The notes beneath the pieces were generated by a model. That model was not told where the DNA came from. It saw only the letters and a program-made list of their open reading frames with translations, and searched no databases. The position numbers and the translations under genes are program-made. Source: Patescibacteria group bacterium (GTDB taxonomy: Bacteria; Patescibacteriota; Patescibacteriia; Patescibacteriales; WJLG01). Taken from it: a stretch of DNA of 64,000 nucleotides. The DNA lies in the NCBI GenBank assembly GCA_028707065.1, contig JAQTUZ010000001.1, forward strand, positions 1,551 through 65,550. Direction: 5' to 3'. Positions 2,571 through 60,140 of the stretch are shown piece after piece; the stretch's first letter is position 1, and every line of letters starts with the position of its first letter.

Positions 2571-4025
2571 ATGACTTTAAAAAAATCTGCAAAAATTGGC
2601 GGCAACAAAGCAAGACCTGGAAAAAATTCCACTTTAAACTGCCAACCGGATAATCTTAGCCGCGGATCGGTTAAAATGGGTTTGATGCTTGCTCTCGTGA
2701 TCATCGCCGTCGTTTTGGCGTTCGCGGCCGCGGCTTATTATCTGTATCCGCAGTTAGCCGGCATTAAAAAACCGGCGGCGGAAAAAAATGCCGCCACCTC
2801 GACTCCGGTCACCATCACCTATATCTCCAATCAGCCTCTGGTCGATCCTACCGACGCGGCAATCATTAACCTGGATAATATTATCGCCGATTTCACCAAA
2901 CAAACCGGCATCAAAGTCAACCGGATCAAGCCGCCGCAAGCGGTGGAAAATTATTCCGACATCAGCATCTATTTGCGGGATATTCTCCGCTCGGATCAGT
3001 CCAAGTTCGACGTCACGATGGTTGATGGCCCGTGGACCGGCATGTTCGCGCCTTATATGCTTGAGCTTACTCCGTATTTTAAAAATCGGCTGACGGAATT
3101 TTTTCCTGAATTGATCGCCAACGGCATGGTTGACGGGAAATTGATCGCCATACCGTATTTCCAGGACATGACCGTTTTGTTTTACCGTACCGATCTCTTG
3201 AAAAAATACGGCTATGCCAATCCGCCGCAGACCTGGGATGAATTGGAACAAATGGCCAAAGTGATCCAGACCGGCGAAAGAAAAATCCACGATAATTTTT
3301 GGGGCTATGTCTGGGCGGCCGATGAAAGCGAATCTTTGACTTGCACCGCCCTCGGGCTGCAGGCTTCCTATGGCGGCGGAACCATCATCGATAACGGAGT
3401 GATCACGGTTGACAATCCCCGCACCGCCCAAGCTCTGGAAAAAGCCATTGGCTGGATCGGAACAATTTCTCCGCCCAATATTTTAAAGTCCACCGAAGAC
3501 GACATCATCATGGCCTGGGATATCGGCAACGCGGCCTTTATGCAAAACTGGCCCGATTCTTACCAGATCAGCGAAGAGTCCATAATCAACGGCGAATACC
3601 AAATAACCGCTCTGCCTTCGGGCGGCTTCAAGCATTCCGGAGTCTATGGCGGAGAATATCTGGGCATTGACAAGCGCACGGCGCATCCTCGCGAGGCGGC
3701 GATGTTTTTGCAATATATGACCAGCCCGGAGGTGCAAAAAAAGCGGGCCATGGAAGATGTTTGGTCGCCGGTTCTTCTGGCCTTATATTCCGATCCTGAT
3801 CTGGCCAAAGCGCAGCCGGTCTATAATTACATAAGTTCGGCAATTTTTGCCCAAGGAGTGGAGCGCCCCGGATCGCAGATCAAAAATATCTACGATAGCG
3901 TGGCATCCGCATACTTTACCAATATCCACGCGATCCTGGCCAAAAAGGTCAGCATCAAAAACGGGCTGAAAGAATTGGAAACGGAATTGATCAATCTTAC
4001 CGGCTTGCCGGCGAGCAATGATTAA
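2571..4025 (+). CDS. ABC transporter substrate-binding protein, family 1 (sugar/maltodextrin-type), membrane-anchored
   Basis: 484 aa with an N-terminal TM segment; carries the PYFQDMTVLFYRTDLL and WGY.W motifs typical of SBP family 1. The true start may be the internal Met near 2676. Confidence 0.8.
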   Translation: MTLKKSAKIGGNKARPGKNSTLNCQPDNLSRGSVKMGLMLALVIIAVVLAFAAAAYYLYPQLAGIKKPAAEKNAATSTPVTITYISNQPLVDPTDAAIINLDNIIADFTKQTGIKVNRIKPPQAVENYSDISIYLRDILRSDQSKFDVTMVDGPWTGMFAPYMLELTPYFKNRLTEFFPELIANGMVDGKLIAIPYFQDMTVLFYRTDLLKKYGYANPPQTWDELEQMAKVIQTGERKIHDNFWGYVWAADESESLTCTALGLQASYGGGTIIDNGVITVDNPRTAQALEKAIGWIGTISPPNILKSTEDDIIMAWDIGNAAFMQNWPDSYQISEESIINGEYQITALPSGGFKHSGVYGGEYLGIDKRTAHPREAAMFLQYMTSPEVQKKRAMEDVWSPVLLALYSDPDLAKAQPVYNYISSAIFAQGVERPGSQIKNIYDSVASAYFTNIHAILAKKVSIKNGLKELETELINLTGLPASND

Positions 4026-5460
4026 TTTGCTCCCGAAAAATAAATTAAAATATTCAATCAAGAAAATCATGAACAACAAAATAAAAAATTTCAATCAGCC
4101 GCCAAGTAAAAAAAATTCGCTTGGGCCGATCATTATCGCGCTGATCATTGTTGTTTTGGCGGCAACCGCTTATTTTCTTTATCCCCAATTATTCGGCCAT
4201 AAAAAATCAGCTCAAGAAAATCATATCACTCCCGCCGCCCCGGTCACCATTACTTATATCTCCAATCAGCCGTTGGTCGATGCCGGCGATGGCGCGGTTA
4301 ATCGCTTAAATAATATTATCAACACCTTCACCAAGCAGACGGGAATTAACGTGGAAAGGGTCATCCCGCCGCAATCGGTCGTAACCTATTCGGACATCGG
4401 CCTGTATTTGAAAGATACTTTGAAATCCGGCCAGTCAGTTTTTGACATAACCATGGTTGATGGCCCCTGGACCGGCATGTTCGCCCCCTATCTGCTTGAT
4501 CTGACGCCATATTTCAAAGATCGGTTAAAAGATTTTTTTCCTGACTTGATCGCCAATGCCACGGTAGACGAAAGATTAGTGGCCATGCCGTATTTTCAAG
4601 ACATGACGGTTTTATTTTACCGCACTGATCTTTTGGAAAAATACGGTTACGAAAATCCGCCGCAAACCTGGGATGAATTGGAGCAAATGGCCAAAGTGAT
4701 CCAATCGGGCGAAAGAAAAACTAATTCCAAATTTTGGGGGTATGTCTGGGCGGCCAACGAAAGCGAATCTTTGACCTGCACCGCGCTCGGGCTGCAAGCT
4801 TCTTATGGCGGCGGCACTATCATTGATAACGGCAAAATAACGGTTAACAATCCCGAGGCAATAAAAGCTTTCACCAAGGCAACCGGCTGGATCGGAACCA
4901 TTTCTCCGGTAAGCGTTTTACAATCATCCGAAAGCGATATTTTGACGACTTGGCAAAATGGCAACGCGGCTTTTATGCAAAGCTGGCCGGGCTCTTTCGC
5001 CATGGGCGCTAATTCCGTGATTAGCGGCGACTACCAAATAACCGCCCTGCCTTCGGGCGGCTTCAAGCATTCCGGAGTCTATGGCGGAGAATATCTGGGC
5101 ATTGATAAGCGCACCGCGCACCCCAAGGAAGCCGCGATGTTTTTACAATATCTTTCCAGCCCGGCCGTGCAAAAAGAGCGAGCCAGGGAAGATCTCTGGT
5201 CGCCGGTTCTTCCGGCCCTGTATTCCGATCCTGATCTGGCCAAAGCGCAGCCGGTCTATGAATTTATCAGTTCGGATATTTTTTCCCAAGGCGTAGCTCG
5301 TCCCGGCTCTCAAGCGGGAAATGTTTACGATCAATTGGCAAACGCTTATTTCTCCGATATCCACGCGATCTTAGCCAAGCAAATCAGCGCCCCGGCCGGA
5401 CTCGCGAAATTGGAATCGCAACTGCATGAAATTACCGGATTGCCGATCGCCACAAAATAA
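4018..5460 (+). CDS. ABC transporter substrate-binding protein, family 1; tandem paralog of the previous gene
   Basis: 480 aa, roughly 65-70% identical to the upstream SBP (tandem duplication); no permease or ATPase genes are adjacent. Confidence 0.8.
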   Translation: MINLLPKNKLKYSIKKIMNNKIKNFNQPPSKKNSLGPIIIALIIVVLAATAYFLYPQLFGHKKSAQENHITPAAPVTITYISNQPLVDAGDGAVNRLNNIINTFTKQTGINVERVIPPQSVVTYSDIGLYLKDTLKSGQSVFDITMVDGPWTGMFAPYLLDLTPYFKDRLKDFFPDLIANATVDERLVAMPYFQDMTVLFYRTDLLEKYGYENPPQTWDELEQMAKVIQSGERKTNSKFWGYVWAANESESLTCTALGLQASYGGGTIIDNGKITVNNPEAIKAFTKATGWIGTISPVSVLQSSESDILTTWQNGNAAFMQSWPGSFAMGANSVISGDYQITALPSGGFKHSGVYGGEYLGIDKRTAHPKEAAMFLQYLSSPAVQKERAREDLWSPVLPALYSDPDLAKAQPVYEFISSDIFSQGVARPGSQAGNVYDQLANAYFSDIHAILAKQISAPAGLAKLESQLHEITGLPIATK

Positions 5461-5607
5461 ATGGCATCAACCGCAGGGCAAGCCCTGCACCCATCTTTTC
5501 TAAAAGGTATCCTCGCCGCAAGCGGATGAGGTATTTATCATCGCTCGCTCGGAAATAATCTCCGCGCGGCGCGGGATTATTTCGCTCGCTTCGCTTGATA
5601 ATAAATA
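5454..5607. repeat. Repeat family 1, copy a: a ~150-bp intergenic module containing a near-perfect 32-bp palindrome (GAAATAATCTCCGCGCGGCGCGGGATTATTTC, 5552..5583)
   Basis: Near-identical copy at 8103..8256; both end a few nt before an ATG start codon. Confidence 0.8.
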
Positions 5608-7647
5608 ATGGCCACCAATCCTTCCGCCAAGAATCAGCGGTTAGATTTTTTCACCAAAAATCAACCGATCAGAAAAATCCTGATAGTCGGATCTATCGGC
5701 GTGCTTATTTTCGCCTTTGCGCTGACCTTGGTGATCGTGATCATCAGCGCCAACCAATTTTTAACCACCAAAACCGGCAAATCATTCTTAGCTTTAGCCC
5801 AATCCAATAGCCAGCAATTCAGCGACGAGATCGCGAGCGAGATGAGCCTCTTGGGCACTTTGACGCAAAACGACATGGTCTACATGTATCTGCGCGATGA
5901 ATTTGATCCGGAAATCGCCAATTTATCAAAAGTTGAGCGCCAGGCCCTGATCCTCCAGCGCGAGCAAAAATGGCTGAATAATGACCGAGAGGTTCGCGAT
6001 TCGGTCACGAACAATATCTTAAGCCAAGGCTTTACCGCGTTTATCAGGAAGAATTTCGGCGTTAGCGAGATCGTTTTAGTTGACAAAGAAGGAAGAGCAA
6101 TCGCCTCCGGCGGGACAATGCCGGATCATTATTATTTCGGCGAGCAAAAATGGTTCAAGGATGTCAGTAACGGAATGAGCGATATCTATCTTGAAGAACC
6201 GGCCGTCAGCTCCGGCCAAAATAAATCCGAAGTGGAAATTATTTTATCGGTCAATCTCCCGTCGTTCAGCGTCTCGCGGGGATATTTATACGCCAAATAC
6301 GACATCAGCCAGTTAAAATTATTTTCCACCATTTTATTGGGCGATCCCAACGTTCACATGTCATTAGTTAATCAAAACGGGCTGGTTCTTTTTGATACCG
6401 TGGCCGGTCAGATCGGCGGCAATTTATCGGCGGTGATGACCAGACAGACCAGCCAAGAAGCCGCGCCAAATTGGCATCTCGGCCAAGATGCTTCCCGCAC
6501 TCCGCTTATTTATAGTTACGCGCCGATCTACTTCAACGACTTATCGATCAATCATCTTTCTTGGTCGATCTTTGTCAGAGAAACAAGCGCCCAAGCTTTT
6601 TCTTTCTTGACCGTGCTGTCCTTGACCATCTTTTTTATCGCCATTTTTATCTTTATCCTGTCTTCGCTGGTGATCTTCTGGCTGGCTTCGGGAATTACCC
6701 GCCCGATCACCAATCTCTTGGGCGTAGTGGAAGAATTTACCGCGGGCAATTATTCCCAGCGCGCCGAAGAATCCGGACCGTACGAATTCAAACTTTTAGG
6801 CGCTTCTTTCAATAAAATGGTTGATAGCATCTTGGCGGCAGAGAAAAAACGCTTGGAAGCGGAAAGGATAAAGAGAGAAGCGGCGGAAAAATACGCAAAA
6901 AAATTGGAAGATCTGGACAAGACGAAGGACAATTTCATCAATATTGTCACTCATGAGCTTAAAACTCCGTTGATACCGATCCTCGGCTTGACCGACGTGA
7001 TGGTGCAAAAGAAAAAAACTTTGTCGGCCGATTTTCAAAACTATGTCGATATCATCCACGACGAAGCGATCAAGCTTTCCGACCTGATCAAACAAATGCT
7101 CACCACCACCAGAATCCAGAATAACATGAAAATTCAAGAAGAAACTTTCAAGATCGACGAATTTATTTCAGGGAATCAAACCGCCTTGAATGAGTTAACG
7201 AAAAGAACTGGTTCAAAAATTGAATACAAAATCAACGCGGCCAACGTGATGATCTCCAGCGATAAAGAAAGGATTTCCCAGGTTATTTACAATTTGGTGG
7301 ACAATGCGGTAAAATACGGGCCAGTGGGGCAAACCATCACCATTACCTTGAGCCAGCCCGACAGCCAATCAGTTAAAGTGGAGGTAGCGGATCAGGGCAA
7401 GGGGATCCCCGTCGAACTTCGAGACAAATTATTCTTGAAATTTTCCCAGCTTGATCCGGCCGCTTCCCGCGCCGGGGAAGGCGTCGGATTGGGATTATAC
7501 ATCTGCAAGCAAAATATCGACCACTTGGGCGGACGGATCGGTCTGGAGAGCGAAGTCGGCCATGGTTCAAAATTTTATTTCGTCTTGCCTTTGCGACATG
7601 AGCTAAAAGATAATATTTCAAACGCGGCGAATAAAAGCAGCGGTTAA
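5608..7647 (+). CDS. Sensor histidine kinase (two TM segments flanking a ~290-aa extracytoplasmic domain, then HAMP, HisKA and HATPase_c)
   Basis: HELKTPL H-box and N/G1/G2 ATP-lid motifs (DNAVKYG, GEGVGLGLYIC). Confidence 0.85.
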   Translation: MATNPSAKNQRLDFFTKNQPIRKILIVGSIGVLIFAFALTLVIVIISANQFLTTKTGKSFLALAQSNSQQFSDEIASEMSLLGTLTQNDMVYMYLRDEFDPEIANLSKVERQALILQREQKWLNNDREVRDSVTNNILSQGFTAFIRKNFGVSEIVLVDKEGRAIASGGTMPDHYYFGEQKWFKDVSNGMSDIYLEEPAVSSGQNKSEVEIILSVNLPSFSVSRGYLYAKYDISQLKLFSTILLGDPNVHMSLVNQNGLVLFDTVAGQIGGNLSAVMTRQTSQEAAPNWHLGQDASRTPLIYSYAPIYFNDLSINHLSWSIFVRETSAQAFSFLTVLSLTIFFIAIFIFILSSLVIFWLASGITRPITNLLGVVEEFTAGNYSQRAEESGPYEFKLLGASFNKMVDSILAAEKKRLEAERIKREAAEKYAKKLEDLDKTKDNFINIVTHELKTPLIPILGLTDVMVQKKKTLSADFQNYVDIIHDEAIKLSDLIKQMLTTTRIQNNMKIQEETFKIDEFISGNQTALNELTKRTGSKIEYKINAANVMISSDKERISQVIYNLVDNAVKYGPVGQTITITLSQPDSQSVKVEVADQGKGIPVELRDKLFLKFSQLDPAASRAGEGVGLGLYICKQNIDHLGGRIGLESEVGHGSKFYFVLPLRHELKDNISNAANKSSG

Positions 7648-7673: not shown

Positions 7674-8060
7674 ATGAAAATCATAATTATCGACGATGAA
7701 ATGAATGTCGTCACTACCATCAAAGCATTCCTCGCCGAGTTGAGCTCGGAGGTCGATTTCGCTTACAGCGGACAGGCGGGGATAAAAAAAATCGAGGCCG
7801 CTCCCGACTATAGCCTGTTAATTCTTGATTTTATGATGTCGGGAATGAGCGGGCTGGATGTTTGCAAAGTAATGAGTGAGGATGAAAAAATGAAAAAAAT
7901 TCCGGTTTTGTTGATTTCGGCCCTGCCGGTCACTTCTCCCGAGTTGCATGAACTCCTCGAAGAATTCAACGAAACTCACATGGTAAAAGGCGTGCTGGAA
8001 AAACCGTTCGGCAAAGACGTTCTTTTGGAAGAAGTAAAAAAAATAGTGAAGGCAGACTAA
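7674..8060 (+). CDS. Single-domain response regulator (receiver only, CheY-like)
   Basis: 128 aa with a DD acidic pocket and a phospho-acceptor Asp in LLILDFMMSGMSG; no output domain. Confidence 0.8.
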   Translation: MKIIIIDDEMNVVTTIKAFLAELSSEVDFAYSGQAGIKKIEAAPDYSLLILDFMMSGMSGLDVCKVMSEDEKMKKIPVLLISALPVTSPELHELLEEFNETHMVKGVLEKPFGKDVLLEEVKKIVKAD

Positions 8061-8102
8061 GCGATCTTGAACGGGAAACCCTTTAACCGGCGAGCGATCA
8101 TA

Positions 8103-8256
8103 AAATAAATGGTATTCAACCGCAGGACAGAGCCCGGCACCCATCTTTTCTAAAAGGTATCCTCGCCGCAAGCGGACGATATCTTTATCATCGCTCGCTC
8201 GGAAAGAATCCCCGCGAGGCGCGGGATTATTTCACTCGCTTCGCTTGATAATAAAA
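8103..8256. repeat. Repeat family 1, copy b (palindrome-bearing module)
   Basis: Roughly 90% identical to 5454..5607; ends 16 nt before the ATG of the acidic-protein gene. Confidence 0.8.
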
Positions 8257-8272
8257 AATAATTTTTAAACCC

Positions 8273-8738: not shown

Positions 8739-10565
8739 TCAAACTTTAATCACTACCGGCAACACCATGGGGCGGCGCTTGGTTTTGGAGAAAAGGAATT
8801 GGCCGACCTCGTCGCGGATCTTATTCTTGATATGATCGACGTCGGCGGAAGTGCGCGAGTCATGCGATTCCACCATTTTTTTCACTTTCATTCTGGTCGC
8901 TTCGATCAGTTCGCGGCTGTCTTTCATATAGACGAAGCCGCGGGAAATAATATCCGGATTGCCGATTGTCTTACCATGTTCGGAATCGATGGTGGCGATG
9001 ATCACAATCATCCCGTCCTCGGCCATGACGCGGCGGTCTCTTAAAACAATATTGGAAACGTCGCCCACGCCCAGACCATCAACCATGACATAATCGGTCA
9101 CGACTTTTTCTTTGGTCAAGCGGCCAACCGTAACGCCGGTTTCATTTTTAGAAAATTCCACCACTTGCCCGTTATCGGCGATAAAAGTTTTTTCTTTGGG
9201 AATGCCCACGGCGCGAGCCAGATCGCCTTCGGCTTTCAGCATAAAGTGATTGCCCTCGATCGGCATAATATATTCCGGCTTTAATAAGCGCATCATCAAT
9301 TTCAAGTCTTCCTGCTTGGCATGGCCGCCGGCGTGCACGTCCATCATTTCATAATGAATAACATCAGCGCCCTGGCGGGTGATCATATCTTTCAAGCTTT
9401 GGATCGTGCGCTCATTGCCCGGGATGACCGAGGAAGAAAAGATCACTGTATCACCCTCCTTGAGATGAATGGTTTTATGCTCGTGCGAAACCACCCGCAC
9501 CAAAAAAGCATTGGACTCGCCTTGCGCGCCCGTGCCCAAAATCAAAACTTTATTATCGGGCAAGCGGTTCAATTCATTGTCCGTCACCAAAATGCGCGGA
9601 TTGAATTTCATATAGCCGATCTGGTGGGCGATCTCGACGTTATCGTTCATGCTCCGGCCCTGGAGATAAACACGGCGGCCGTACTTTTCCGCCAGATCGA
9701 ATAATTTTTGCACGCGAGCCAATTGCGAAGCGAAAGTGCCGATGATGATCCGCCCGTCGATCTTCTCAAAAATTTTATCCATTTCATTGCCGATGGCCGA
9801 TTCGGAAAGCTGATAGCCCGGATGAGTGGAGTCGGTGGAATCGGACATCAAGAGCATTACTCCTTCCGAACCGATCTGGGCGATGCGCTGCAAGTCGGCC
9901 GGCTTATCGTTGACCGGCGAATAATCGATCTTAAAATCCCCGGTATGAATGATACGGCCGACCGGCGTATCGACGATCACGGCGAAACAATCAGGAATGG
10001 AATGATTGACTCTTAAAAATCCAATTCGAAAGGCCCGGCCCAGCCGCAAAACCGAATTTTCATCGATGATCTGGTCATTTAATTTGGGGCAGTCGCGGTA
10101 TTCGGCGCATTTCTTTTTTACCAGCCCGGCTGTCAGCTTGCCCATGAAGATCGGCGGATTGCCGATCTCGCCCATAATATGAGGAATGCCGCCGATATGG
10201 TCATAATGGCCATGAGTAATGATCACGCCCTTAACCCATTCCGCCTTGTCTTTCAGATAGCTGACATTGGGAATGATGTAATCGATGCCCGGCATATCTT
10301 CTTCGGGAAATTGCAGGCCCATATCGATAATAATGATCTCCCGCTCGTATTCGATGAGAGTCATATTCCGGCCGACTTCTTCCAATCCGCCCAAGACGAT
10401 AATTTTTAATTTACCGTCCGGGCTGGTGATGATTTGTTCGGCCGGCGTCTTCGGCGCCGTTTGAGTCGGACGCGGTCCGTGATAGGAAGAAAAAAACTTC
10501 CTCTTTTCCCCTCCCGCGCCTCGCGGCGGCTGATGAGAGGTTCTTGGTTTGTACTTGGTGTTCAT
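8739..10565 (-). CDS. rnj: Ribonuclease J (metallo-beta-lactamase, beta-CASP and C-terminal domains) with a basic N-terminal extension
   Basis: HGHYDHIGG motif and beta-CASP architecture, 608 aa. Confidence 0.85.
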   Translation of the reverse strand: MNTKYKPRTSHQPPRGAGGEKRKFFSSYHGPRPTQTAPKTPAEQIITSPDGKLKIIVLGGLEEVGRNMTLIEYEREIIIIDMGLQFPEEDMPGIDYIIPNVSYLKDKAEWVKGVIITHGHYDHIGGIPHIMGEIGNPPIFMGKLTAGLVKKKCAEYRDCPKLNDQIIDENSVLRLGRAFRIGFLRVNHSIPDCFAVIVDTPVGRIIHTGDFKIDYSPVNDKPADLQRIAQIGSEGVMLLMSDSTDSTHPGYQLSESAIGNEMDKIFEKIDGRIIIGTFASQLARVQKLFDLAEKYGRRVYLQGRSMNDNVEIAHQIGYMKFNPRILVTDNELNRLPDNKVLILGTGAQGESNAFLVRVVSHEHKTIHLKEGDTVIFSSSVIPGNERTIQSLKDMITRQGADVIHYEMMDVHAGGHAKQEDLKLMMRLLKPEYIMPIEGNHFMLKAEGDLARAVGIPKEKTFIADNGQVVEFSKNETGVTVGRLTKEKVVTDYVMVDGLGVGDVSNIVLRDRRVMAEDGMIVIIATIDSEHGKTIGNPDIISRGFVYMKDSRELIEATRMKVKKMVESHDSRTSADVDHIKNKIRDEVGQFLFSKTKRRPMVLPVVIKV

Positions 10566-10671
10566 AAATTAGAAGCAAATTTAATAAAAATTATTTTGGA
10601 GTTCAAATTTTTAATTTGTTTGCTTAGATTAATATTGTTAGATTGTTAAATTGTTATGTTGTTGAGCATTT

Positions 10672-10708
10672 TTGGCTCTGGCAGAGTCTCGCATCAGCGG
10701 ACTCTGCC
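10672..10708. repeat. Repeat family 2, copy a: 37-bp hairpin element TGGCTCYGGCAGAGTCTCGC-NNN-AGCGGACTCTGCC
   Basis: 9-bp inverted repeat GGCAGAGTC/GACTCTGCC; other copies at 11476..11512 and 34694..34729. Confidence 0.8.
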
Positions 10709-10722
10709 ACTGACTTCAAAAT

Positions 10723-11454
10723 TTATTTTAAGCCTTTTTTAAACGGATTATAATAAACATCGTGGGTAGTCATAATATATGTGGCTCTCTTTTTGTAAAT
10801 ATTCTTTTCCTGTTTTTTGATTTTTGAATATTTTTGGCTATTGGAAACGGATTTATTTTTTAGCATCCGCGTTTTTATGTTTGGAGTATAATACCAGCGA
10901 ATATTTTGCGTCGCCGCCCTTCGGCAATAATCCGCATCCTCATGTCTTCTTATTCGGTCATAAAAATACCCAAGTTTTTTAAAAACAAATTTTGGAATGG
11001 AAAAAAATCCTCCGGCCAGTGTCCAAAACGGAAAGACATCTCCAAAAATCATTCTTCCCTTTTTGAATTCAAAACCTTTTTGATTGATTTTTCCTCCCAG
11101 AATAGCTTTATTATCCCAAATTTTATGAGCCTTCAACAAAACGTCGTTCCAATTTTTGGTTAAAACTTTTACATCGCGATCAATTATGGTAATGAAGTCC
11201 GCATCTTGATTTAAATTAATTATTTTATTTATACTTTTCGGTTTTCCAATATTTTTATTATTTCTAAGCAAGTTGATTCCAGAATTTATTTCCAAAAATT
11301 TTTTTAAATACTCGCTTGTTTGTTTATCACTCCCATCATCAATAACGTAAGTAATGCAACCTTTAAGATTGGTATTTTTTATATAGGCGGTGAGTGTTCT
11401 TTTTACAATTTGTAATTTATTGTAAACCGGAATAATAATCAGATGTTTTGTCAT
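10723..11454 (-). CDS. Glycosyltransferase family 2
   Basis: PVYN and DDGSD motifs; conspicuously AT-rich against the flanking DNA; flanked by direct copies of the family-2 hairpin repeat. Confidence 0.8.
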   Translation of the reverse strand: MTKHLIIIPVYNKLQIVKRTLTAYIKNTNLKGCITYVIDDGSDKQTSEYLKKFLEINSGINLLRNNKNIGKPKSINKIINLNQDADFITIIDRDVKVLTKNWNDVLLKAHKIWDNKAILGGKINQKGFEFKKGRMIFGDVFPFWTLAGGFFSIPKFVFKKLGYFYDRIRRHEDADYCRRAATQNIRWYYTPNIKTRMLKNKSVSNSQKYSKIKKQEKNIYKKRATYIMTTHDVYYNPFKKGLK

Positions 11455-11475
11455 ACTAATCTAAATAATGATTTT

Positions 11476-11512
11476 TTGGCTCCGGCAGAGTCTCGCGCCA
11501 GCGGACTCTGCC
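11476..11512. repeat. Repeat family 2, copy b
   Basis: Same 37-bp hairpin element in the same orientation as copy a, on the other side of the GT2 gene. Confidence 0.8.
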
Positions 11513-11536
11513 GCCGAAAACGACTGCTATCCCGGA

Positions 11537-12151
11537 TTAACATTGTAAATCGAAAGAATAATCTGCCTCATTGTTTTCCGAAATATCATCGAAAAAATAA
11601 GCTATCTTGAATCTTACCCTGCCGCCCCATAAAATATTTTCCAGTCTACAGCTGCCAAAATCCGATAAAGTTTCAAAAGTGAAATTTTTCGGAACTCTGC
11701 TGACGATATTAGGCGTGATATATCGCTTGGTCAAATCAAACATTTCTCTCAAACTTGGCCGCGTATCATCAAGCGTTGTCGCGTGGGCAGATTTTTCCGT
11801 TCCCGAAATGATTCTCCAATCAGGATCCAAAATAGCCACTTCGGCCGATAGATTTTTTAGTAAATTTTCATCGAGCACATCGCCAACAATAAAATTAATT
11901 TTATTATCAACGCCATATAGTTTGGCATTTTTTTTAGCATCATCGATCCTGCTTCGGTCAATGTCAACCGCAGTAACTTTATTCATCTTCTTGGCGAGCT
12001 GTATGGCGAGCATGCCAACGGCGCAACAAAGCTCAACTGCCGAACTAAAACGTGATAATTGGTTGGCGATGTGCTGGCCAACCACCTCGGGACAACTCAT
12101 ATAATAAGCGTCTTGATCAGCAAAGATGTCTTTTGAAAATTTCTGTTTCAT
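11537..12151 (-). CDS. Class I SAM-dependent methyltransferase
   Basis: VELCCAVG glycine-rich SAM-binding motif, 204 aa. Confidence 0.65.
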   Translation of the reverse strand: MKQKFSKDIFADQDAYYMSCPEVVGQHIANQLSRFSSAVELCCAVGMLAIQLAKKMNKVTAVDIDRSRIDDAKKNAKLYGVDNKINFIVGDVLDENLLKNLSAEVAILDPDWRIISGTEKSAHATTLDDTRPSLREMFDLTKRYITPNIVSRVPKNFTFETLSDFGSCRLENILWGGRVRFKIAYFFDDISENNEADYSFDLQC

Positions 12152-12299
12152 GATTTTATTTCGGTTATCGTAAAAAGATCACCTGTTCAGTAAACAAATT
12201 TGTATAAAATAGATCCTTCTCCGCCCGGGGCGGATCAGGATGACAAAAAACTGGAAAGCGCAACAACTAAGTACCTAATCAACTAATTGACTAATAGAC

Positions 12300-14303
12300 T
12301 TACCATTCGAGCCTTTCTCCCGTCTTCACGTACCAATTGAAAACGTCGGAGAAGCGGTCGGCGGGAGAGGCGATGCTTTTGACCGCGAAGCCTTTGATTT
12401 TTTTATTTTGCACGTAATTATAGTAAGGCGAGAAAAGGAAAACCGCCGGCGCGTCATTGGTCAACAAGGTTTGAAATTGCTGGTAATCGGCGATCCGCTG
12501 GTTGCGATCCAGGCTCAAGCGCCCCTCTTCCAAACTTTTATCAACCTCTTCGTTCTTGTAGTTGGCCAAATTCAAACCGCCGGCTCCGGCTTGCGTCGAA
12601 TGCCAAAAAACATAAACATCGGGATCGTTGCCGACTTGTTCGCTAAACAACAACACTTCATAATTTTTCGGTTTGACCACGCTGGCTTGGATTTCCTTGG
12701 CCGGAACCGGCGTAATAGCGACTTTGGCGCCGATCTTTTCCCAGCTATCTTTGACGATCTGGGCGATTTTGGCATTTTCCTCGTCAGCGCTGATCGACAA
12801 ATTAATGATCAAATAATTTCTTACCGCTGGCGTTGTCGTCTTGGTTTTTGTCGTGGCGGTTTTGCTCGCCGGCTCTTGATAAAGCCAGGTCCCTGCTCCC
12901 AGCGCAAGCTCGGATTTTTCAATATCGGTTAAAGAGGGCTTGGTCGTTGAAGCTTTTTTGGTCTCCAGCGCTTTAATCATTTCGTCGGTGACGATATCTT
13001 TTTTCCATCCCGCGGCATCTAATACGGATGCGGCTCGGGCCAGATCAAAATCATATTTCTGTATATTGGGATTATAGGCATAATTATCATCCAAGATCGG
13101 GCCGTTAACGATTCGGGCATTGCCTCCCTCAACTTGATCGATTATTTGTTGTTTGGGCGTGGCATAAGACAAAGCTTGCCGTACTTTCGCGTCTTTTAAA
13201 AGGGAATTTTTATCCTGATTGAAAAAAATCGCTTTTAATTGCGGCTGATCGAGCTGATAAAAATTCAAAGTATTTTTAGCGATCAAATTTTCCCGGTCAG
13301 TATTGGACAAATAACTCAAGCCATCAACGCTGTTATCGTTCAAAGCGTTGAGAGCTTCGGCGGCATCGGCGTAAAATTTAAAAACAATCTCTTTCAAATA
13401 AGGTTTCCGGCCGTAATAATTTTTATTGGCCGTCAAAGTATAACTCTTGATATTTCCGCTCTTATCCTTGACCAATGACTTGAATTGGTAAGGGCCGGAA
13501 CCGATCGGTTTTAAATTAGGCTCGGCCACCGGCGCGGACTCCGGAGCGACTTGGCCCCAAACCGATTGCGGCATAATGCCAAAGGTCAGCAAGCCCAAAA
13601 ATGGCGCGTAGTTCTCCGACAAAGTGAAGACCACGGTCTGATCATCTTGCCGGGTCGCGTCCACGCCGGCAAGACCGAATCGCAAAGGAGAATTATAAGC
13701 CGGATTGGCAATATCTTCGAAGGTAGAAACAACATCGTCGGCTGTAATTTTTTCACCGTCCTGCCAGCGGGCGTCACTCCTCAATTTTATCGTGTAGGCT
13801 TTGCCATCGGCTGAAACCTGATAGCTTTCCGCCAAATCGTTTTCCAGCTGTCCGTTGCCGTCATACTTAAAAAGAGCTGAGTAGATCAAATGGCCAAGAT
13901 CATCATCCACGTCGGAGAGCGTCGCGTAAAGCGGGTTGATATGCGCGGGGCTGCCGATCAATCCTTCGGCATATTGCCCCCCCGCTACGGGCATCACGCG
14001 CAAATGTTTCTGGGCCGCGTTAAAACCCAGCCAGCCTAAATTCAAAACGATAAAAATTATCAATAAATTGATCAGCCAAATTTCCCGCTTATGCAAAGTT
14101 TTACCCAAATGCTTAAGCTGGCGAAGCGAAGGAATTTTCGATTTCGACAAAGAATAAACTAATTTTTTGTCCAAATTTGCATTAATCATGATAACTTTCG
14201 GCCGTCGGGGACCAAAAATCTTACCGATAAAAAACAAGGAGTCGGCAAAAAATTTTCTGACCATGGCCAATAGCGGTAAAATTTTACTTTTTAATAAACC
14301 CAT
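12300..14303 (-). CDS. ABC transporter substrate-binding protein, family 5 (OppA/DppA-like), N-terminally membrane-anchored
   Basis: 667 aa with family-5 SBP-like architecture after an N-terminal TM helix; no cognate permease genes nearby. Confidence 0.7.
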   Translation of the reverse strand: MGLLKSKILPLLAMVRKFFADSLFFIGKIFGPRRPKVIMINANLDKKLVYSLSKSKIPSLRQLKHLGKTLHKREIWLINLLIIFIVLNLGWLGFNAAQKHLRVMPVAGGQYAEGLIGSPAHINPLYATLSDVDDDLGHLIYSALFKYDGNGQLENDLAESYQVSADGKAYTIKLRSDARWQDGEKITADDVVSTFEDIANPAYNSPLRFGLAGVDATRQDDQTVVFTLSENYAPFLGLLTFGIMPQSVWGQVAPESAPVAEPNLKPIGSGPYQFKSLVKDKSGNIKSYTLTANKNYYGRKPYLKEIVFKFYADAAEALNALNDNSVDGLSYLSNTDRENLIAKNTLNFYQLDQPQLKAIFFNQDKNSLLKDAKVRQALSYATPKQQIIDQVEGGNARIVNGPILDDNYAYNPNIQKYDFDLARAASVLDAAGWKKDIVTDEMIKALETKKASTTKPSLTDIEKSELALGAGTWLYQEPASKTATTKTKTTTPAVRNYLIINLSISADEENAKIAQIVKDSWEKIGAKVAITPVPAKEIQASVVKPKNYEVLLFSEQVGNDPDVYVFWHSTQAGAGGLNLANYKNEEVDKSLEEGRLSLDRNQRIADYQQFQTLLTNDAPAVFLFSPYYNYVQNKKIKGFAVKSIASPADRFSDVFNWYVKTGERLEW

Positions 14304-15544: not shown

Positions 15545-15551
15545 AAAAAAA

Positions 15552-15662
15552 TATAATCCGAATACTACAAATTATATCCGAATACTACGAACTCCACGAA
15601 CCGAACAAATTTTCGTTAAAATGTTCGTGGTATTCGGATATTTCGTAGGTTCGGATTATAAA
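15552..15662. mobile_element. Repeat family 3, copy A: ~110-bp MITE-like element with terminal inverted repeats (ATAATCCGAATACTAC ... GTAGGTTCGGATTAT) and internal CGAATACTACGAAC/GTTCGTGGTATTCG arms
   Basis: Sits between infC and rpmI and ends 7 nt from the rpmI start codon; related copies at 23878..23979, 42369..42493, 48414..48536 and 49058..49112. Confidence 0.75.
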
Positions 15663-31295: not shown

Positions 31296-31437
31296 TTTTG
31301 TCATCCCGCCCCATTGTCATTGCGAGCGCCGCGCGAAGCAATCTCGCCCCTGGCGGAAAAACACTTCGCTATCGCGAGACGCGGGATTGCTTCGTCGTCC
31401 GCCCAAGGCGGACTCCTCGCAATGACAAAAATAAAAG
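31296..31437. repeat. Repeat family 4, variant copy: TIR element TGTCATTGCGAGCGCCGCGCGAAGCAATC ... GATTGCTTCGTC..CTCGCAATGACA
   Basis: Same architecture as the TGTCATCCTGAGCG copies, but with compensatory substitutions in both stem halves. Confidence 0.75.
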
Positions 31438-31489
31438 GCCCCGACACATTTCTGCGCGAGGCCAAGAACAAACAAACAATTTTCTCAGG

Positions 31490-32152
31490 TCACGTTGTAA
31501 TTGCTGCCAGGCAGTTAGCGTTTAAGGCGCAGGCGACAAAGCTGTAGGACCATTCCCGCCGTGAACCGGCCCAGTGGAAGCAACGGACATAGAGGTTGCC
31601 GCCAGTCTTGCAATAAATGGTGCCCCAGAAAAAAATCCATGCTTCATTTTTGAATTCTTCCGTAATAAATTCGGGGAATTCCACCAAGGCATCAAGAATA
31701 TTCGCATTAAGTACTGATTTGTTAGCAAGCTCTTTACGAATCTCGAATCCCTTAATCGTTTTGCCGATTTGCTGACGGTCAGAACGAAAAAAAATGACTT
31801 TCCGGCCATCAAGATACAATCCGTCCGGCCTTTTTTCCAAAACAGCCAGGCCCCTTCCTGAATGCGATTCGATCCCGTAACCTTCTTTAACCGGCTTCGG
31901 CGTCAAGCCTAAATTGACGATCAGCGTCGTATCATTAATCTTCCTGACCAACGGCTGTATGGCAATATATTCATCGCCGAGCGTTTGCAGGAATTTAATG
32001 AAACTTTCCTTCCCTTCGCCCATGAGCCAAGGAATTATTTCCAGCCCGATTTTCATCTGGCTGAAAGTTTCCCTGATGAGCGAGAACAAACTGATGACGT
32101 TCGACATGAGCTTGCCCAAATCCGCCCAATCCAACGACCGTTTCGCTGACAT
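31490..32152 (-). CDS. Hypothetical protein
   Basis: 220-aa ORF with no recognisable motifs. Confidence 0.4.
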   Translation of the reverse strand: MSAKRSLDWADLGKLMSNVISLFSLIRETFSQMKIGLEIIPWLMGEGKESFIKFLQTLGDEYIAIQPLVRKINDTTLIVNLGLTPKPVKEGYGIESHSGRGLAVLEKRPDGLYLDGRKVIFFRSDRQQIGKTIKGFEIRKELANKSVLNANILDALVEFPEFITEEFKNEAWIFFWGTIYCKTGGNLYVRCFHWAGSRREWSYSFVACALNANCLAAITT

Positions 32153-32313
32153 ACATCCTCCTTTGCCGCCTCATTGCCAAAATCCGCCCAAAGCGGACCG
32201 GCGCCGACTTAGCATTGGTTAAGGTTGAAAAAGTGCCTTTTTGCGGTCATTTAACCGCAAAAAACATAACCCGATATTAGCACAAAATTATTTTCCTGTC
32301 AACCTCACCTCAT

Positions 32314-32494
32314 TTGTCATCCTGAGCGCCGCGCGAAGGATCTATTATAGGAGATGCTTCTAAAAACATCAGCAAACATTAGAACGAACAAGTAAAAAAT
32401 ATCATCGATAAAAAAATTGGCAGTAGTAATTCAAGTTTTGCCTAGAATAGATCCTTCGTCGTCAGCCGAGGCGGCCTCCTCCTCAGGATGACAA
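32314..32494. mobile_element. Repeat family 4, copy 1: 181-bp MITE-like element with ~30-bp TIRs (TTGTCATCCTGAGCGCCGCGCGAAGGATCTATT / AATAGATCCTTCG..CTCAGGATGACAA)
   Basis: Near-perfect terminal inverted repeats with an AT-rich core; lies immediately downstream of the recQ stop. Confidence 0.8.
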
Positions 32495-32508
32495 AAAAAT
32501 GTTGTCTG

Positions 32509-34755
32509 CTACTTGTTACCTGATACCTGTTTGAATTTCGCCCGCGCAATTTTAATTTCTTCCCAAGAATAATCATCGCCAAGTTCGTCTTTGATCGGCG
32601 TCAGTTTTTCAAAGCCGACTTTTTTAATGGCGGCGAAAATCTTGTCCTGTTTTTTAGAACTCACCAATTTATCGATGTCTTTTATCAAGCCTTTTTCAAT
32701 TAAAAATACTAAGTGGTTATAAATCGTTTCAACGGTGAAGCCGCGCGCGCCGGCGATCCCGGCCGGATTGTAATTCTTGTTGAACAATTCCAAAGTTTCC
32801 AATTGCGTCAATTTGGTATTCAAAGTTTTCTTCTCCACCTTTATTTCTCCAAAATCCACCTTTAACACACCCCGGCGCTCCGAGACGTCGCGCCACCCCT
32901 CTCGAGAGGGGACTTTTTTAAAATCTTTTCGTGCGTAGCGATTCCCCTCTGGAGAGGGGTGGCTCGCGCCTCGCGAGACGGGGTGTGTGACGTCCGAAGC
33001 TCCGCCCAAACAATTATCGCACTTGCCGCAGTGTTCAACGTCGTATTCGCCGAAGTAATTCAGAATATATTCCGGACGGCAACTGAAATGATAGACATAA
33101 TCTTCCATCTCGTCTAATTTACTGTAAGCCCGGGCGGCTTTTTCGCGCATCGCCGAAAAATCTATCTTGACTTCGGATCGCGGAACGCGTTTCAAAATTT
33201 GGATTTCCGTACCGCGCTTAGGCGGATTATATTCGACCAGCTCGGCTTTTTTCCAGGCATTAATCGAGCGCACCAAAGCTTCGCGGCCGACTTCGATAGT
33301 TCCGGCCACTTCATCCAGATCAAATTCCCAGCCCTCGAACAACTCGGTGGCAAACCGCGCGTTCAATTTATTCAAGATTTCCACCTGCTTCTTGGCTTGT
33401 TTGGAAACAAAATCCAAAGTCGTCTGATGATTATTGATCATCCTTAAAAATGCCGGCGAAGTTTTTTCGCTCGAGCGGGCGATATAACCTTCTTTTTCCA
33501 GAATTTTCAAACAGGTGCCGACGGCCATGTCCGGGACTTTGTCCGACAAATTTTCCATCAGCTCGGCATAAGTCGTAAAAATCCGGTCGGTTTCATAGTT
33601 AGTCAAAACTTCGTAAATTTCCAGAACTGTTTCCGGCGCCGGGTTATCGCCCTTGATAAAAAATTCCCGCAAGAACCGATCCTTGGGCGCAAAAAATAAA
33701 AGACAAAGCGAAGGCGCGCCATCGCGACCGGCCCGGCCGGCCTCCTGATAATAGGCCTCGATCGTCCCCGGCATATCGTGATGAATCACGAAGCGCACGT
33801 CTTTTTTATCAATCCCTAAGCCGAAAGCGTTGGTGGCAACGATTATTTTAGTTTTGCCTTTCAGAAAATTTTCCTGCGTCCAAGAACGGCTTTCCGGATC
33901 CATCCCGGCGTGATAAAAAACCGCTTCCAAACCGCGCTCTAGTAATACGTCGGTAACTTCTTCAGCTTTGGCGCGCGTGCCGGTGTAAATTATCCCACAG
34001 CCTTCGACGCTTTCGGCCGCGTCAGCGATCAGCGATAATTTTTGCGCGTCCGGCGCTTTGATCACGCCGAATTGCAGATTCGGCCGGGTAAAGCCGGTGA
34101 TTATTTTTTTCACCCCAGTCATATTTAGCTGCTTCACAATATCCTCTTTTACTTCAGGTGTAGCTGTAGCTGTAAGCGCAACTATGGGAGGGTGACCGCA
34201 AAGTTCGATCGCTCTGCCCAATCTCATATAGCTGGGCCGGAAATCATGACCCCATTGCGAAATGCAATGCGCTTCGTCCACTGCGAATAATTTCACTTTC
34301 AACTGAGCAAGCTGTGAAACAAATTCATCATTATAAAATCTTTCCGGTGCGATATATAAAAGTTTATAAAATTCTTTTTTGACCAACTCCAACCTCTCTT
34401 TGGCCTCGTCGGGCGAGATCGAAGAATTGATGAAAGTCGCGGGCACGCCGATCTTATTCATCGAATCAACCTGATCTTTCATCAAGGCGATCAGCGGCGA
34501 AACCACGATTGCCACGCCGTCCAATACCAAAGCCGGCAATTGAAAAATCAAAGACTTGCCGCCGCCGGTCGGCATCACGACTAAAACGTCTTTGCCGTCC
34601 AAGATGGCGTCGATCGCTTCTTCCTGCCCGGGCCTAAATTTATCAAAACCATAATGGATTTTGAGCAATTCGACCGCCTGCTTCTTTTTTTGACTGGCTC
34701 CGGCAGAGTCTCGCGTAGCGGACTCTGCCGTTAAATTCGTATTTTCGGTATTCAT
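32509..34755 (-). CDS. recQ: ATP-dependent DNA helicase RecQ family with in-frame repeat-element insertions
   Basis: Helicase motifs (VVMPTGGGKS, DEAH) and a zinc-binding CGKCDNC. Family-7 elements at 32862..32911 and 32944..32989 and a family-2 hairpin at 34694..34729 are in-frame without stop codons. The true N-terminus is uncertain. Confidence 0.85.
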   Translation of the reverse strand: MNTENTNLTAESATRDSAGASQKKKQAVELLKIHYGFDKFRPGQEEAIDAILDGKDVLVVMPTGGGKSLIFQLPALVLDGVAIVVSPLIALMKDQVDSMNKIGVPATFINSSISPDEAKERLELVKKEFYKLLYIAPERFYNDEFVSQLAQLKVKLFAVDEAHCISQWGHDFRPSYMRLGRAIELCGHPPIVALTATATPEVKEDIVKQLNMTGVKKIITGFTRPNLQFGVIKAPDAQKLSLIADAAESVEGCGIIYTGTRAKAEEVTDVLLERGLEAVFYHAGMDPESRSWTQENFLKGKTKIIVATNAFGLGIDKKDVRFVIHHDMPGTIEAYYQEAGRAGRDGAPSLCLLFFAPKDRFLREFFIKGDNPAPETVLEIYEVLTNYETDRIFTTYAELMENLSDKVPDMAVGTCLKILEKEGYIARSSEKTSPAFLRMINNHQTTLDFVSKQAKKQVEILNKLNARFATELFEGWEFDLDEVAGTIEVGREALVRSINAWKKAELVEYNPPKRGTEIQILKRVPRSEVKIDFSAMREKAARAYSKLDEMEDYVYHFSCRPEYILNYFGEYDVEHCGKCDNCLGGASDVTHPVSRGASHPSPEGNRYARKDFKKVPSREGWRDVSERRGVLKVDFGEIKVEKKTLNTKLTQLETLELFNKNYNPAGIAGARGFTVETIYNHLVFLIEKGLIKDIDKLVSSKKQDKIFAAIKKVGFEKLTPIKDELGDDYSWEEIKIARAKFKQVSGNK
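32862..32989. repeat. Repeat family 7, copies ii and iii (inverted relative to each other) inside recQ coding sequence
   Basis: TTAACACACCCCG..CCACCCCTCTCGAGAGGGGA at 32862..32911 and its reverse-orientation relative at 32944..32989. They encode KKVPSREGWRDVSERRGVLK and DVTHPVSRGASHPSPEGN in the RecQ frame. Confidence 0.8.
34694..34729. repeat. Repeat family 2, copy c (37-bp hairpin) within the annotated recQ N-terminus
   Basis: CTGGCTCCGGCAGAGTCTCGCGTAGCGGACTCTGCC. Confidence 0.8.
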
Positions 34756-34828
34756 CTAATTCATCTTATAAAAAATACCGGCTATGCGCAAGCCGGGAAA
34801 TGTTTCATAAAAATAAGTGGTTCTTGTT

Positions 34829-34980
34829 TTGTCATCCTGCCTGCCCGGCCAGGGAGCGCGTCGCGAAGGATCTATTACACGCGAAGCGCGAACATCGTTG
34901 ACAAAAATTTTTATCGTATTGATATGGGCCTCATGAGTAATAGATCCTTCACTCCGCTCCGCTGCGTTCAGGATGACAAA
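34829..34980. mobile_element. Repeat family 4, copy 2 (152 bp) between recQ and the GIY-YIG gene
   Basis: TIRs TTGTCATCCTG..CGAAGGATCTATTA / TAATAGATCCTTC..CAGGATGACAA; the right TIR supplies the last codons of the GIY-YIG ORF. Confidence 0.8.
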
Positions 34981-35221
34981 AAATTTTTGCCAATTTTAAC
35001 TTTTCCGCTCTGGATAATTTCTTAATTTTACTTTCCGCCTTAGCCGCCGCGGACCGGTTGCGGAATTTTTTGGAGTAAACGATTTTCACCGGCCTTCTGG
35101 CGCGGGTATATTTCGCGCCCTTTTTCGATTCGTTATGCTCCTTAACTCGCCGCGCCAAATCAACCGTGATCCCGGTATATAAAGTCTGATCCGCGCATTT
35201 TAAGATATAAAGATAGTACAT
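34949..35221 (-). CDS. GIY-YIG nuclease domain protein (small, UPF0213-like)
   Basis: YYLYILKC..LYTGIT..L..R..EHN GIY-YIG motif, 90 aa; the C-terminal ~11 aa are encoded by the repeat TIR. Confidence 0.6.
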   Translation of the reverse strand: MYYLYILKCADQTLYTGITVDLARRVKEHNESKKGAKYTRARRPVKIVYSKKFRNRSAAAKAESKIKKLSRAEKLKLAKIFCHPERSGAE

Positions 35222-35299
35222 GAATTTATTATCGCACTTTTAAACAAAAAAAGGCAGACGCTCTGGTCTGCCGTTACTTAATGAAAAGGCGGATTTGTT

Positions 35300-42361: not shown

Positions 42362-42368
42362 AAAAATA

Positions 42369-42493
42369 ATATAATCTGAATACTACAAATTGTATCCGAA
42401 TTCTACGAACTCTACAAATCGAAAAATTTTCCGTAAAAAACGTTCGTAGTATTCGGTCCGCCAGCTGGCGGATTTCGTAGGTTCGGATTATAT
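42369..42493. mobile_element. Repeat family 3, copy C
   Basis: TIRs ATAATCTGAATACTACAAATT ... TTTCGTAGGTTCGGATTATAT; ends 8 nt upstream of the terC start. Confidence 0.75.
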
Positions 42494-48346: not shown

Positions 48347-48413
48347 TTTTTATAATATAGGCCCAGCTTTTGGGTCTATATTTGTTAAGAGGCTTTTTAC
48401 AAATTTTCAAGTC

Positions 48414-48536
48414 AGTATATAATGCGAATACTACAAATTGTGCGCGAATACTACGAACGGATTTAACGAATTAAAAATAATTCGATAAATAATTTGCGGT
48501 ATTCGCGAATAATTCGTTGTATTCGCATCATGTCAT
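48414..48536. mobile_element. Repeat family 3, copy D
   Basis: TIRs TAATGCGAATACTACAAATT ... AATTCGTTGTATTCGCATCA; abuts the NYN gene start (6 nt). Confidence 0.75.
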
Positions 48537-49057: not shown

Positions 49058-49112
49058 ATAATGCGAACCTACGAATTGTACGCGAATACTACGAACAGTT
49101 TAACGAAGTTTA
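49058..49112. repeat. Repeat family 3, partial copy E (left-end half)
   Basis: ATAATGCGAACCTACGAATTGTACGCGAATACTACGAAC matches the left ends of copies A to D; no right TIR. Confidence 0.6.
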
Positions 49113-49131
49113 TTCGACTATTAATAAACCT

Positions 49132-59685: not shown

Positions 59686-60140
59686 TGAGGAAGCGGGACT
59701 CGAACTAGGCAGGAGCGAGACAAGTTTGCCGCCGCAATTCCGGCGGCGGTAAACGTAGTCGAGCGTCCGCCGACCAGCCGGGGGCTGGTCGGCGCTGCCT
59801 CTGGACAAGTGAGCGGAGCGGAAGCGACGCGAGCGCGACAACCGTTTGTTAAAATTGAACTGCTTGGCTCGGCGAGGGACTCGAAAGCCGGAGCGATGCC
59901 AGCCGAGCTTTCCGGCGAGGCTGGCCGCGAGGCGGGGTCGCGACCGAGCGAGCGGAAGCGAGCGAGAGTTGTGACCGAGTCCCGTCCAGAGCGACGAATA
60001 ATCGAGCGACGCCGGCCTTTCGGGAAAAGGCTGCCGCCAACCCTGGACAAGAGAGCGAGCCGCTTTCCGGCGGCGAGCGAACGCGGAAGTCCAGTCTATT
60101 GCCAACTGCTTGGCTCGGCGAGGGACTCGAAAGGCTCAAG
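59686..60140. repeat. GC-rich repeat array downstream of tRNA-Asp containing direct and inverted copies of the tRNA-Asp 3' end (GGGACTCGAA x3, CGAGTCCCGTCCA)
   Basis: Also holds a duplicated 30-mer ACTGCTTGGCTCGGCGAGGGACTCGAAAG and a ~100-bp module (59883..59997) shared with the tRNA-Ala locus. The 137-180-aa ORFs predicted here are artefacts. Confidence 0.7.

Follow-up and report, generated by a model that had tools for sequence, protein, structure and literature searches.

Bulged hairpins around an AT-rich glycosyltransferase gene in a Patescibacteria genome as probable REP elements of a REP/RAYT system

The glycosyltransferase locus and its hairpins

The DNA analysed here is a stretch of 64,000 nt from a Patescibacteria group bacterium (contig JAQTUZ010000001.1 of GenBank assembly GCA_028707065.1, positions 1,551 to 65,550 of the forward strand), termed the window, and coordinates are those of the window unless another locus is named. 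At 10723..11454 on the minus strand it carries a GT2 family glycosyltransferase gene (243 amino acids, Pfam Glycos_transf_2), termed GT2, with a short hairpin on either side. The first hairpin is placed between GT2 and the RNase J gene (8739..10565, minus strand), the second between GT2 and a gene for a Methyltransf_15-type methyltransferase (11537..12151, minus strand, 204 amino acids), and a third lies near the 5' end of the recQ helicase gene (32509..34755, minus strand), with the three neighbouring genes identified by Pfam. An earlier note on this DNA had suggested that the bracketed GT2 was gained by recombination, in the manner of a cassette. The analysis presented here indicates that the hairpins are very probably repetitive extragenic palindromic (REP) elements belonging to a REP/RAYT system, RAYT being the REP-associated tyrosine transposase, a domesticated enzyme that spreads such repeats, in a Falkowbacteria-like Patescibacteria genome, and that the bracket around GT2 is a by-product with no cassette ends.

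The 36-nt pattern from which the earlier note started is matched exactly at 10673-10708 and 11477-11512 on the plus strand and gives no match in 100 dinucleotide-preserving shuffles. The 9-mer GGCAGAGTC occurs six times in the window, compared with 0.09 occurrences expected, and the six form three palindromic pairs; the third pair (34702-34729) falls outside the pattern with its NNN spacer because its loop is shorter by one base. REP copy 1 (10671..10708, minus strand) has the sequence GGCAGAGTC-CGC-TGAT-GCG-A-GACTCTGCC with the tail AGAGCCAAA and is positioned 14 nt beyond the stop codon of GT2 and 107 nt ahead of the ATG of RNase J. Copy 2 (11475..11512, minus strand) has the same hairpin with the loop TGGC and the tail GGAGCCAAA, and is found 24 nt downstream of the stop codon of the methyltransferase gene and 22 nt upstream of the ATG of GT2. 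Copy 3 (34693..34729, minus strand), with the loop TAC and the tail GGAGCCAGT, is contained within the recQ ORF, where it lies in frame in codons 9-20 and would encode AESATRDSAGA; translation may start upstream of it or at a TTG/GTG further downstream. The orientation is identical in all three and the neighbouring genes are all on the minus strand, so that the same-orientation hairpins on both sides of GT2 and the further copy at the recQ 5' end are as the earlier note had described them. Its observation that GT2 is AT-richer than its neighbours also stands, with a GC content of 0.303 compared with 0.501 for the RNase J gene, 0.398 for the methyltransferase gene and 0.45 for the window.

Fold of the element and its transposase partner

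The consensus on the gene-sense (minus) strand is GGCAGAGTC-CGC-(3-4 nt loop)-GCG-A-GACTCTGCC followed by (G/A)GAGCCAAA. The element is composed of a 9-bp outer stem (GGCAGAGTC/GACTCTGCC), an inner stem of 3 bp, a loop of 3-4 nt and a conserved unpaired tail (GGAGCCAAA), and an A is bulged out of the 3' arm, with the hairpin being 28-29 nt long with 12 bp and one bulge in all three copies and the whole element about 38 nt. Calculated folding energies are -24 to -28 kcal/mol on the minus strand and -23 to -31 kcal/mol on the plus strand, and the z-scores of the three copies are between -3.5 and -5.9 over both strands. The likeness of copies 1 and 2 stops about 4 nt 5' and about 12 nt 3' of the hairpin, which means that the repeat is a unit of about 40 nt alone, and the same limits exclude a larger duplicated block that includes copy 2. 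A CRISPR repeat was considered and dropped, as the two copies are 804 nt apart with a gene in between and form no array.

Hairpins in other genomes were collected from public sequences by two scans, both of which demanded exact outer stems, so that the family is under-sampled. An exact-pattern scan covering one genome per species returned five loci, which is a sample of the family and no census. Four of these are in the Candidatus Falkowbacteria metagenome-assembled genome (MAG) CAVVFV01 (L002, L003, L005, L006), and one is in a contig (L004, CAYHIM010000006.1) of a MAG labelled uncultured Gammaproteobacteria, a label that may reflect mis-binning or horizontal transfer. A metagenome scan using the outer stem only (GGCAGAGTC-N9-12-GACTCTGCC) returned at least 120 loci, from which chance matches and unrelated palindromes were removed by means of the tail and the inner-stem structure. 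One of the unrelated palindromes is longer and has an identical 9-bp stem (CGGAAATGAACAAAC-GGCAGAGTC-CCGCNAACGG-GACTCTGCC-GTAAYTTTGTTCGGG); it is seen at about 30 metagenome loci among the matches listed (for example L007, L011, L014, L019, L027 and L030), at least one of them from a human-gut assembly.

For a comparison of structures the public hairpins were picked by the tail alone (GCCAAA-like or GC[AG]ACG) to avoid circularity. The bulged A and three paired inner positions are present in 44 of the 46 distinct hairpins selected in this way among the matches listed. The inner-stem pairs covary, with compensatory types that include C-G/G-C/C-G, C-G/T-A/C-G and C-G/C-G/T-A; the second pair is found as G-C, T-A or C-G and the third as C-G, T-A, G-C or A-T. 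This covariation indicates that it is the folded form of the hairpin that is under constraint, as would be the case for the single-stranded DNA (ssDNA) substrate of an HUH enzyme. The three near-identical window copies and their relatives form a genuine repeat family, as the earlier note had supposed.

An enzyme of the expected kind is encoded beside the hairpins in related genomes. In the Falkowbacteria MAG contig L003 a 185-amino acid HUH/Tyr open reading frame (ORF) is enclosed by two inverted hairpins with their tails directed outward, and it matches the NCBIfam model NF047646, REP-associated tyrosine transposase, with an E value of 1.3e-21 and 77.1 bits. The contig L004 holds an intact homologue of 181 amino acids, 56% identical to the L003 RAYT, with a hairpin doublet on each side; the REP and this RAYT adjoin very large Pro/Thr-rich proteins of a surface type. 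Further RAYT homologues adjoin hairpins in L072, L094, L098, L037 and L058 among the matches listed, with the gene in L072 and L094 again lying between inverted hairpins with tails outward, and in L016 a homologue is located about 1 kb from the hairpin. At the locus L136 an intact Falkowbacteria/Patescibacteria RAYT (P0127) has inverted arms of 53 nt on its two sides; these carry the bulged hairpin of the window, its outer stem altered by compensated changes to CCAGAGTC/GACTCTGG and GTCAGAGTC/GACTCTGAC. The defining layout of a "REPtron" is a RAYT gene with its own REP on both sides in inverted orientation (PMC6006769), and the comparison with REPs drawn in the earlier note is apt in that relatives hold such elements together with a cognate RAYT.

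The intact RAYT proteins score 80.4, 86.4 and 86.4 bits against the curated equivalog cut-off of 80 bits for NF047646. The NCBIfam IS200 model gives just 14-17 bits against a cut-off of 55. The sole relative of the RAYT proteins in the PDB is Escherichia coli TnpA_REP (4ER8), with which the HuH and YIxxNP motifs align. The proteins are 181-185 amino acids long, and the motifs NHLH/NHIH and YIH[HKN]NP are invariant in the alignment. A profile search returned more than 4000 protein clusters, many of which are named "REP element-mobilizing transposase RayT" or assigned to Patescibacteria/Falkowbacteria.

The RNase J slot, the origin of the bracket and other repeats

The surroundings of GT2 are best described as a slot between two conserved flanks, the RNase J gene on one side and an SBP_bac_5 solute-binding protein (SBP) gene, identified by Pfam (12300..14303, minus strand), on the other. 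The variable segment between them (10709..12195, no strand assigned) holds the methyltransferase gene, REP copy 2 and GT2 in the window. In L006, where RNase J is 89% identical at the amino acid level, the order is SBP, a GNAT acetyltransferase, REP and RNase J, and in L059 (RNase J 84% identical) a different methyltransferase precedes the REP and RNase J; GT2 is absent from both. In these two loci the REP is separated by 7-11 nt from the stop codon of the upstream gene and by about 115-125 nt from the ATG of RNase J. Homology of the window to L006 and L059 detected by blastn runs from the base of the REP stem (10708/10710) through RNase J. On the SBP side the homology with L006 extends beyond the SBP stop codon by about 65 nt according to blastn and about 105 nt according to MAFFT, and the border of the variable segment there is a different repeat (GTCATCCTGA...GGATC), not this REP.

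A palindromic repeat family (TTTGTCATCCTGAGCG...GCGAAGGATCTATT, complement ...TCAGGATGACAAA) is present at 12219-12250, 32313-32354, 34828-34884, 34952-34983 and 45054-45096 / 45142-45184. One copy marks the border of the variable segment on the SBP side and is retained in L006; the additional DNA that separates the GIY-YIG gene from recQ is occupied by another.

REP copy 1 has orthologues in L006 and L059, in each case upstream of the RNase J gene, and the comparison of these loci indicates that it is an old, vertically inherited resident. Copy 2, in the gap between the methyltransferase gene and GT2, is found only in the window lineage and in an identical Logan contig (L001), and on this distribution it is lineage-specific. 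The window methyltransferase belongs to the segment missing from L006, and its 85% identical homologue in the P0027 contig, where the order is methyltransferase, orf71, orf273 and RNase J, directly abuts orf71, from which it follows that copy 2 is no old companion of the methyltransferase gene. No two of the four related genomes have the same contents in the slot just upstream of the REP and RNase J. The copy in recQ likewise appears from its conservation to be an old, vertically inherited resident: it is retained in L005 (4009-4036), with AESA[T/L]RDSAGA as the predicted peptide in the two genomes and a 9-nt in-frame indel beside it, and the synteny around it is stable. REPs are known mostly from sites downstream of ORFs and sometimes from within repair genes (PMC3733652).

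The same region differs between the window and L005 by insertions or deletions. The window has an extra 220-amino acid ORF (31490-32152) with no Pfam match, the regions concerned being 31316-32508 and 35222-35245, and two small ORFs (92 and 142 amino acids, within 2830-3685) are additional in L005.

GT2 itself is probably a horizontally acquired accessory gene, judging from its composition and its setting. Homologues with 82, 76, 73 and 61% identity occur in unrelated neighbourhoods, different in each genome, with the 76% homologue following a methyltransferase gene and preceding an EamA gene, the 73% homologue following dnaJ and the 61% homologue lying next to an AHSA1-domain gene. Every homologue is lower in GC than its own locus, so that the foreign character attributed to GT2 in the earlier note is seen in each genome examined. 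The window hairpins were not found at the loci of these four homologues.

At the 61% homologue, direct repeats resembling tRNA 3' ends (GGTTCGAAAYTCGTYCCAYCCTGCGAGC) flank the gene in L130 (about 5880-5925 and 6740-6785) and also in L131. These repeats are a possible att-type integration signature for that GT2 homologue.

The proposal that GT2 and its hairpins form a mobile cassette does not survive these comparisons. Copy 1 belongs to the RNase J upstream region and is kept in L006 and L059 without GT2, and the close homologues of GT2 are present without flanking hairpins. Hairpins are placed at recQ, 3' of an acetyl-CoA synthetase gene, 5' of a pilin gene and around RAYT genes, a functionally unrelated set, regardless of gene content; both results go largely against the proposal. 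That two of the three copies fall into adjacent gaps has a probability of about 12% by chance (three copies among 49 intergenic gaps), and for this reason the hairpin bracketing of GT2 is not statistically remarkable.

That the hairpins are attC sites of an integron-like kind, or the ends of an IS200/IS605-type transposon with GT2 as its passenger gene, is scarcely credible; the sole attraction of this reading is the layout of a single gene with a direct hairpin on each side. In addition to the presence of copy 1 without GT2 in the relatives, the whole hairpin-GT2-hairpin unit is repeated nowhere among the loci compared. No Phage_integrase match was obtained in a Pfam search of 20 window ORFs (16 of them of 250-460 amino acids), which returned housekeeping families only; four of the 20 were without a Pfam match at E<=1e-4, and two of these rescanned at E<=1e-3 gave just a weak CBM9_1 match. 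No Y1 transposase was found inside the unit or elsewhere in the window by tblastn with two RAYTs. The attC likeness, already qualified on grounds of size in the earlier note, fails in size, core and array together. attC sites have a length of 57-141 nt, compared with 38 nt for the element here, a GTTRRRY-like core (GTTAAAT) is found beside copy 3 only, that is beside one of three copies, and a single gene takes the place of a cassette array.

A second alternative takes the REP next to RNase J for a site of recombination through which single genes such as GT2 are gained or exchanged, by RAYT-mediated strand transfer on ssDNA or by short-homology recombination between REPs, with copy 2 being a scar or a second site of the event. 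This REP-assisted gene swapping is regarded as unlikely, although several features of the slot are in its favor: four related genomes have four different contents directly upstream of the REP and RNase J, the homology ends only a few nt from the base of the REP stem, copy 2 is specific to the lineage and found together with GT2, the direct arrangement of the two copies is also that of the end hairpins of IS200/IS605 elements, and GT2 is compositionally foreign. Against this, the break point is constrained in any case by the upstream stop codon just 7-15 nt from the REP, the far border of the variable segment is formed by the different repeat near the SBP gene, and the close GT2 homologues without hairpins argue that no REP-GT2-REP unit travels. 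Other gene insertions or deletions between the window and the Falkowbacteria MAG (for example the two small ORFs of L005 and the 220-amino acid ORF at 31490-32152) do not adjoin this REP, the synteny around the recQ REP is stable and the adjacency of two copies has the chance probability given above. The stronger claim that the RNase J REP is an active site for hairpin-guided single-strand cassette exchange in bacteria of the candidate phyla radiation (CPR) is equally regarded as improbable; on that reading single accessory genes would enter and leave a fixed chromosomal slot. Were it true, REP/RAYT-based exchange would be a functional parallel to integrons, and GT2 with its two direct REPs would be a freshly captured cassette.

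For the REP/RAYT system favored here the following course of events is proposed. An HUH/Y1 enzyme of the RAYT (TnpA_REP) family is encoded elsewhere in such genomes between two inverted hairpins and, by analogy with E. coli TnpA_REP and IS200/IS605 (PMC6006769, PMC3479197), would recognise the folded hairpin and tail on ssDNA and cut and rejoin it. By the same analogy, this activity would seed and maintain REP copies in intergenic DNA. The low-GC, horizontally acquired GT2 would then have entered a slot of gene turnover that has the resident RNase J REP at its border, and the direct-repeat bracket would be the by-product of this resident REP, the lineage-specific copy 2 and the arrival of GT2.

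The REP copies are positioned 7-27 nt past stop codons and mostly on the sense strand, as tallied with a crude ORF caller, and because of this position they are probably transcribed as stable 3' stem-loops, which may stabilise or attenuate the mRNAs. With dnaA and dnaN at 56.4-59.2 kb, the directions of genes and of replication coincide in the window, and for this reason a transcription bias is inseparable from a lagging-strand bias. A host cis-regulatory RNA element, acting as a processing site, protein-binding site or attenuator in the RNase J, recQ and other transcripts with only a secondary link to RAYT, would account for the conservation of the RNase J-upstream position in three genomes and of the recQ 5' position in two, for the stem covariation, which fits an RNA structure, and for the placement of most copies with a GCCAAA tail on the sense strand of co-directional flanking genes in the crude ORF calls. 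It is nevertheless considered highly improbable. Rfam gives no match at the hairpins, either with the whole window at the gathering threshold or with 10500-11700 at E<=1, the sole match in the latter region being a chance mir-553 inside GT2. The terminator and promoter scan does not call the hairpins as terminators, and the sense-strand 3' sequence is GGAGCCAAAAA, with no U-tract. The orientation is mixed in the wider family, with several copies antisense and those around RAYT genes inverted, the flanked genes are functionally unrelated and the recurring REPtron architecture favors recognition at the DNA level.

Several points weigh against the assignment to a REP/RAYT system. A tblastn search of the 64-kb window with two RAYTs gave nothing below E=4, so that the cognate RAYT of the window organism itself is deduced from its relatives, and the RAYT gene of L003 (6028-6582) has one in-frame TGA, which may mark a pseudogene or an assembly or sequencing error. 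The tail is GGAGCCAAA, or GCAACGG in a sister subfamily, and not the GTAG or CGTC of classical REP tags (PMC3733652), although RAYT subclass 2.6 and class 3 are on record with tags and structures that are likewise atypical (PMC6006769). In the window each copy stands singly, instead of in an inverted doublet of the REPIN (REP doublet forming hairpins) or BIME (bacterial interspersed mosaic element) type; doublets are present in L002, L004, L022 and L105. The copy number looks low for a REP family, with three copies in 64 kb, two of them intergenic and one in the recQ 5' end, and, in the related Falkowbacteria MAG, five strict matches and a count of seven copies over the four loci examined. Because the variable slot has a REP at its border, some room is left for recombination assisted by REPs, and each step of the proposed mechanism is read from sequence.

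On the REP/RAYT assignment the window contributes to a well-defined REP family with a RAYT partner in Patescibacteria, in which the outer stem is conserved, one base is bulged, the inner stem covaries and the tail is other than GTAG. The hosts are CPR bacteria with genomes of about 1 Mb, which would not be expected to tolerate selfish or domesticated repeats, and a full-text literature search found no paper describing REP/RAYT systems in Patescibacteria. The family would explain a recurrent intergenic motif that is ignored by annotation pipelines, its members may serve as markers of orthologous positions between Falkowbacteria genomes and the slot next to the resident REP could be used for testing whether REPs promote gene exchange. 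No new kind of mobile cassette is revealed and the practical value is modest.

The window contains further repeats. A composite multi-hairpin repeat of about 160 nt is present as two direct copies about 90% identical (5452-5612 and 8100-8262) that bracket a histidine kinase gene (5608-7647) and a response regulator gene (7674-8060), so that GT2 is not alone in the window in lying between direct copies of a structured intergenic repeat. A family of repeats of about 40-77 nt built from CGAATACTAC(A/G)AATT units occupies intergenic positions in both orientations (15545-15621, 42363-42439, 48411-48487, 23865-23983 and 49069-49125). Between tRNA-Leu (20133-20217) and the tmRNA gene (21065-21448) a 59-nt direct repeat with 98% identity (20789-20847 and 20985-21043) may represent an att-like duplication. 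Around tRNA genes in the neighbourhood of the probable origin, a short way past dnaA (57841-59214) and dnaN (56452-57594), there are direct repeats that are GC-rich, 59-72 nt long and 89-97% identical (59910-59981 / 63031-63102 and 63097-63516). Two tandem paralogous SBP_bac_1 solute-binding protein genes (2571-4025 and 4018-5460) have 67-78% DNA identity.

Comparison with known systems

Integron cassettes share with the GT2 locus a folded hairpin with extrahelical bases beside a single gene that appears promoterless. The window differs in that no IntI was found among the ORFs searched, the size is wrong, there is neither a conserved R'/R'' core nor an array and the hairpin is also placed at housekeeping genes.

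The end hairpins of IS200/IS605 elements are in direct orientation. The likeness to the window lies in related HUH/Y1 enzymes and in sub-terminal direct hairpins recognised on ssDNA, whereas the window unit encloses a glycosyltransferase gene in place of a transposase gene and is not repeated.

The TnpA_Y1 subclass 2.6, corresponding to group 5 of the RAYTs defined by Bertels, is found mostly in Bacteroidetes with a mean length of 179 amino acids (PMC6006769, Table 1). The Patescibacteria proteins differ in having FE or FQ instead of the WQ dipeptide and in their host phylum, and are alike in their length of 181-185 amino acids, in the HuH motif NH[LI]H and the Tyr motif YIH[HKN]NP and in the atypical flanks without GT[AG]G. 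The link to this subclass is, on these sequences, one of resemblance by length and motifs only.

The closest comparison is with the REP/RAYT systems of E. coli and Pseudomonas (PMC6006769, PMC3116915, PMC3479197). The window family differs from these in its GGAGCCAAA/GCAACGG flank, its low copy number and its singleton copies, and its host has an ultra-small CPR genome compared with the larger-than-average size reported for genomes that bear RAYTs (PMC6006769). The few copies seen suggest a similar dispersal, mostly to sites just downstream of ORFs. In common are a short, bulged and imperfect palindrome whose unpaired flank is conserved, orthologous positions that persist between genomes, an occasional copy in a repair gene, and a cognate HUH/Tyr gene between inverted copies, found in the relatives of the window genome at L003, L072, L094 and L136.

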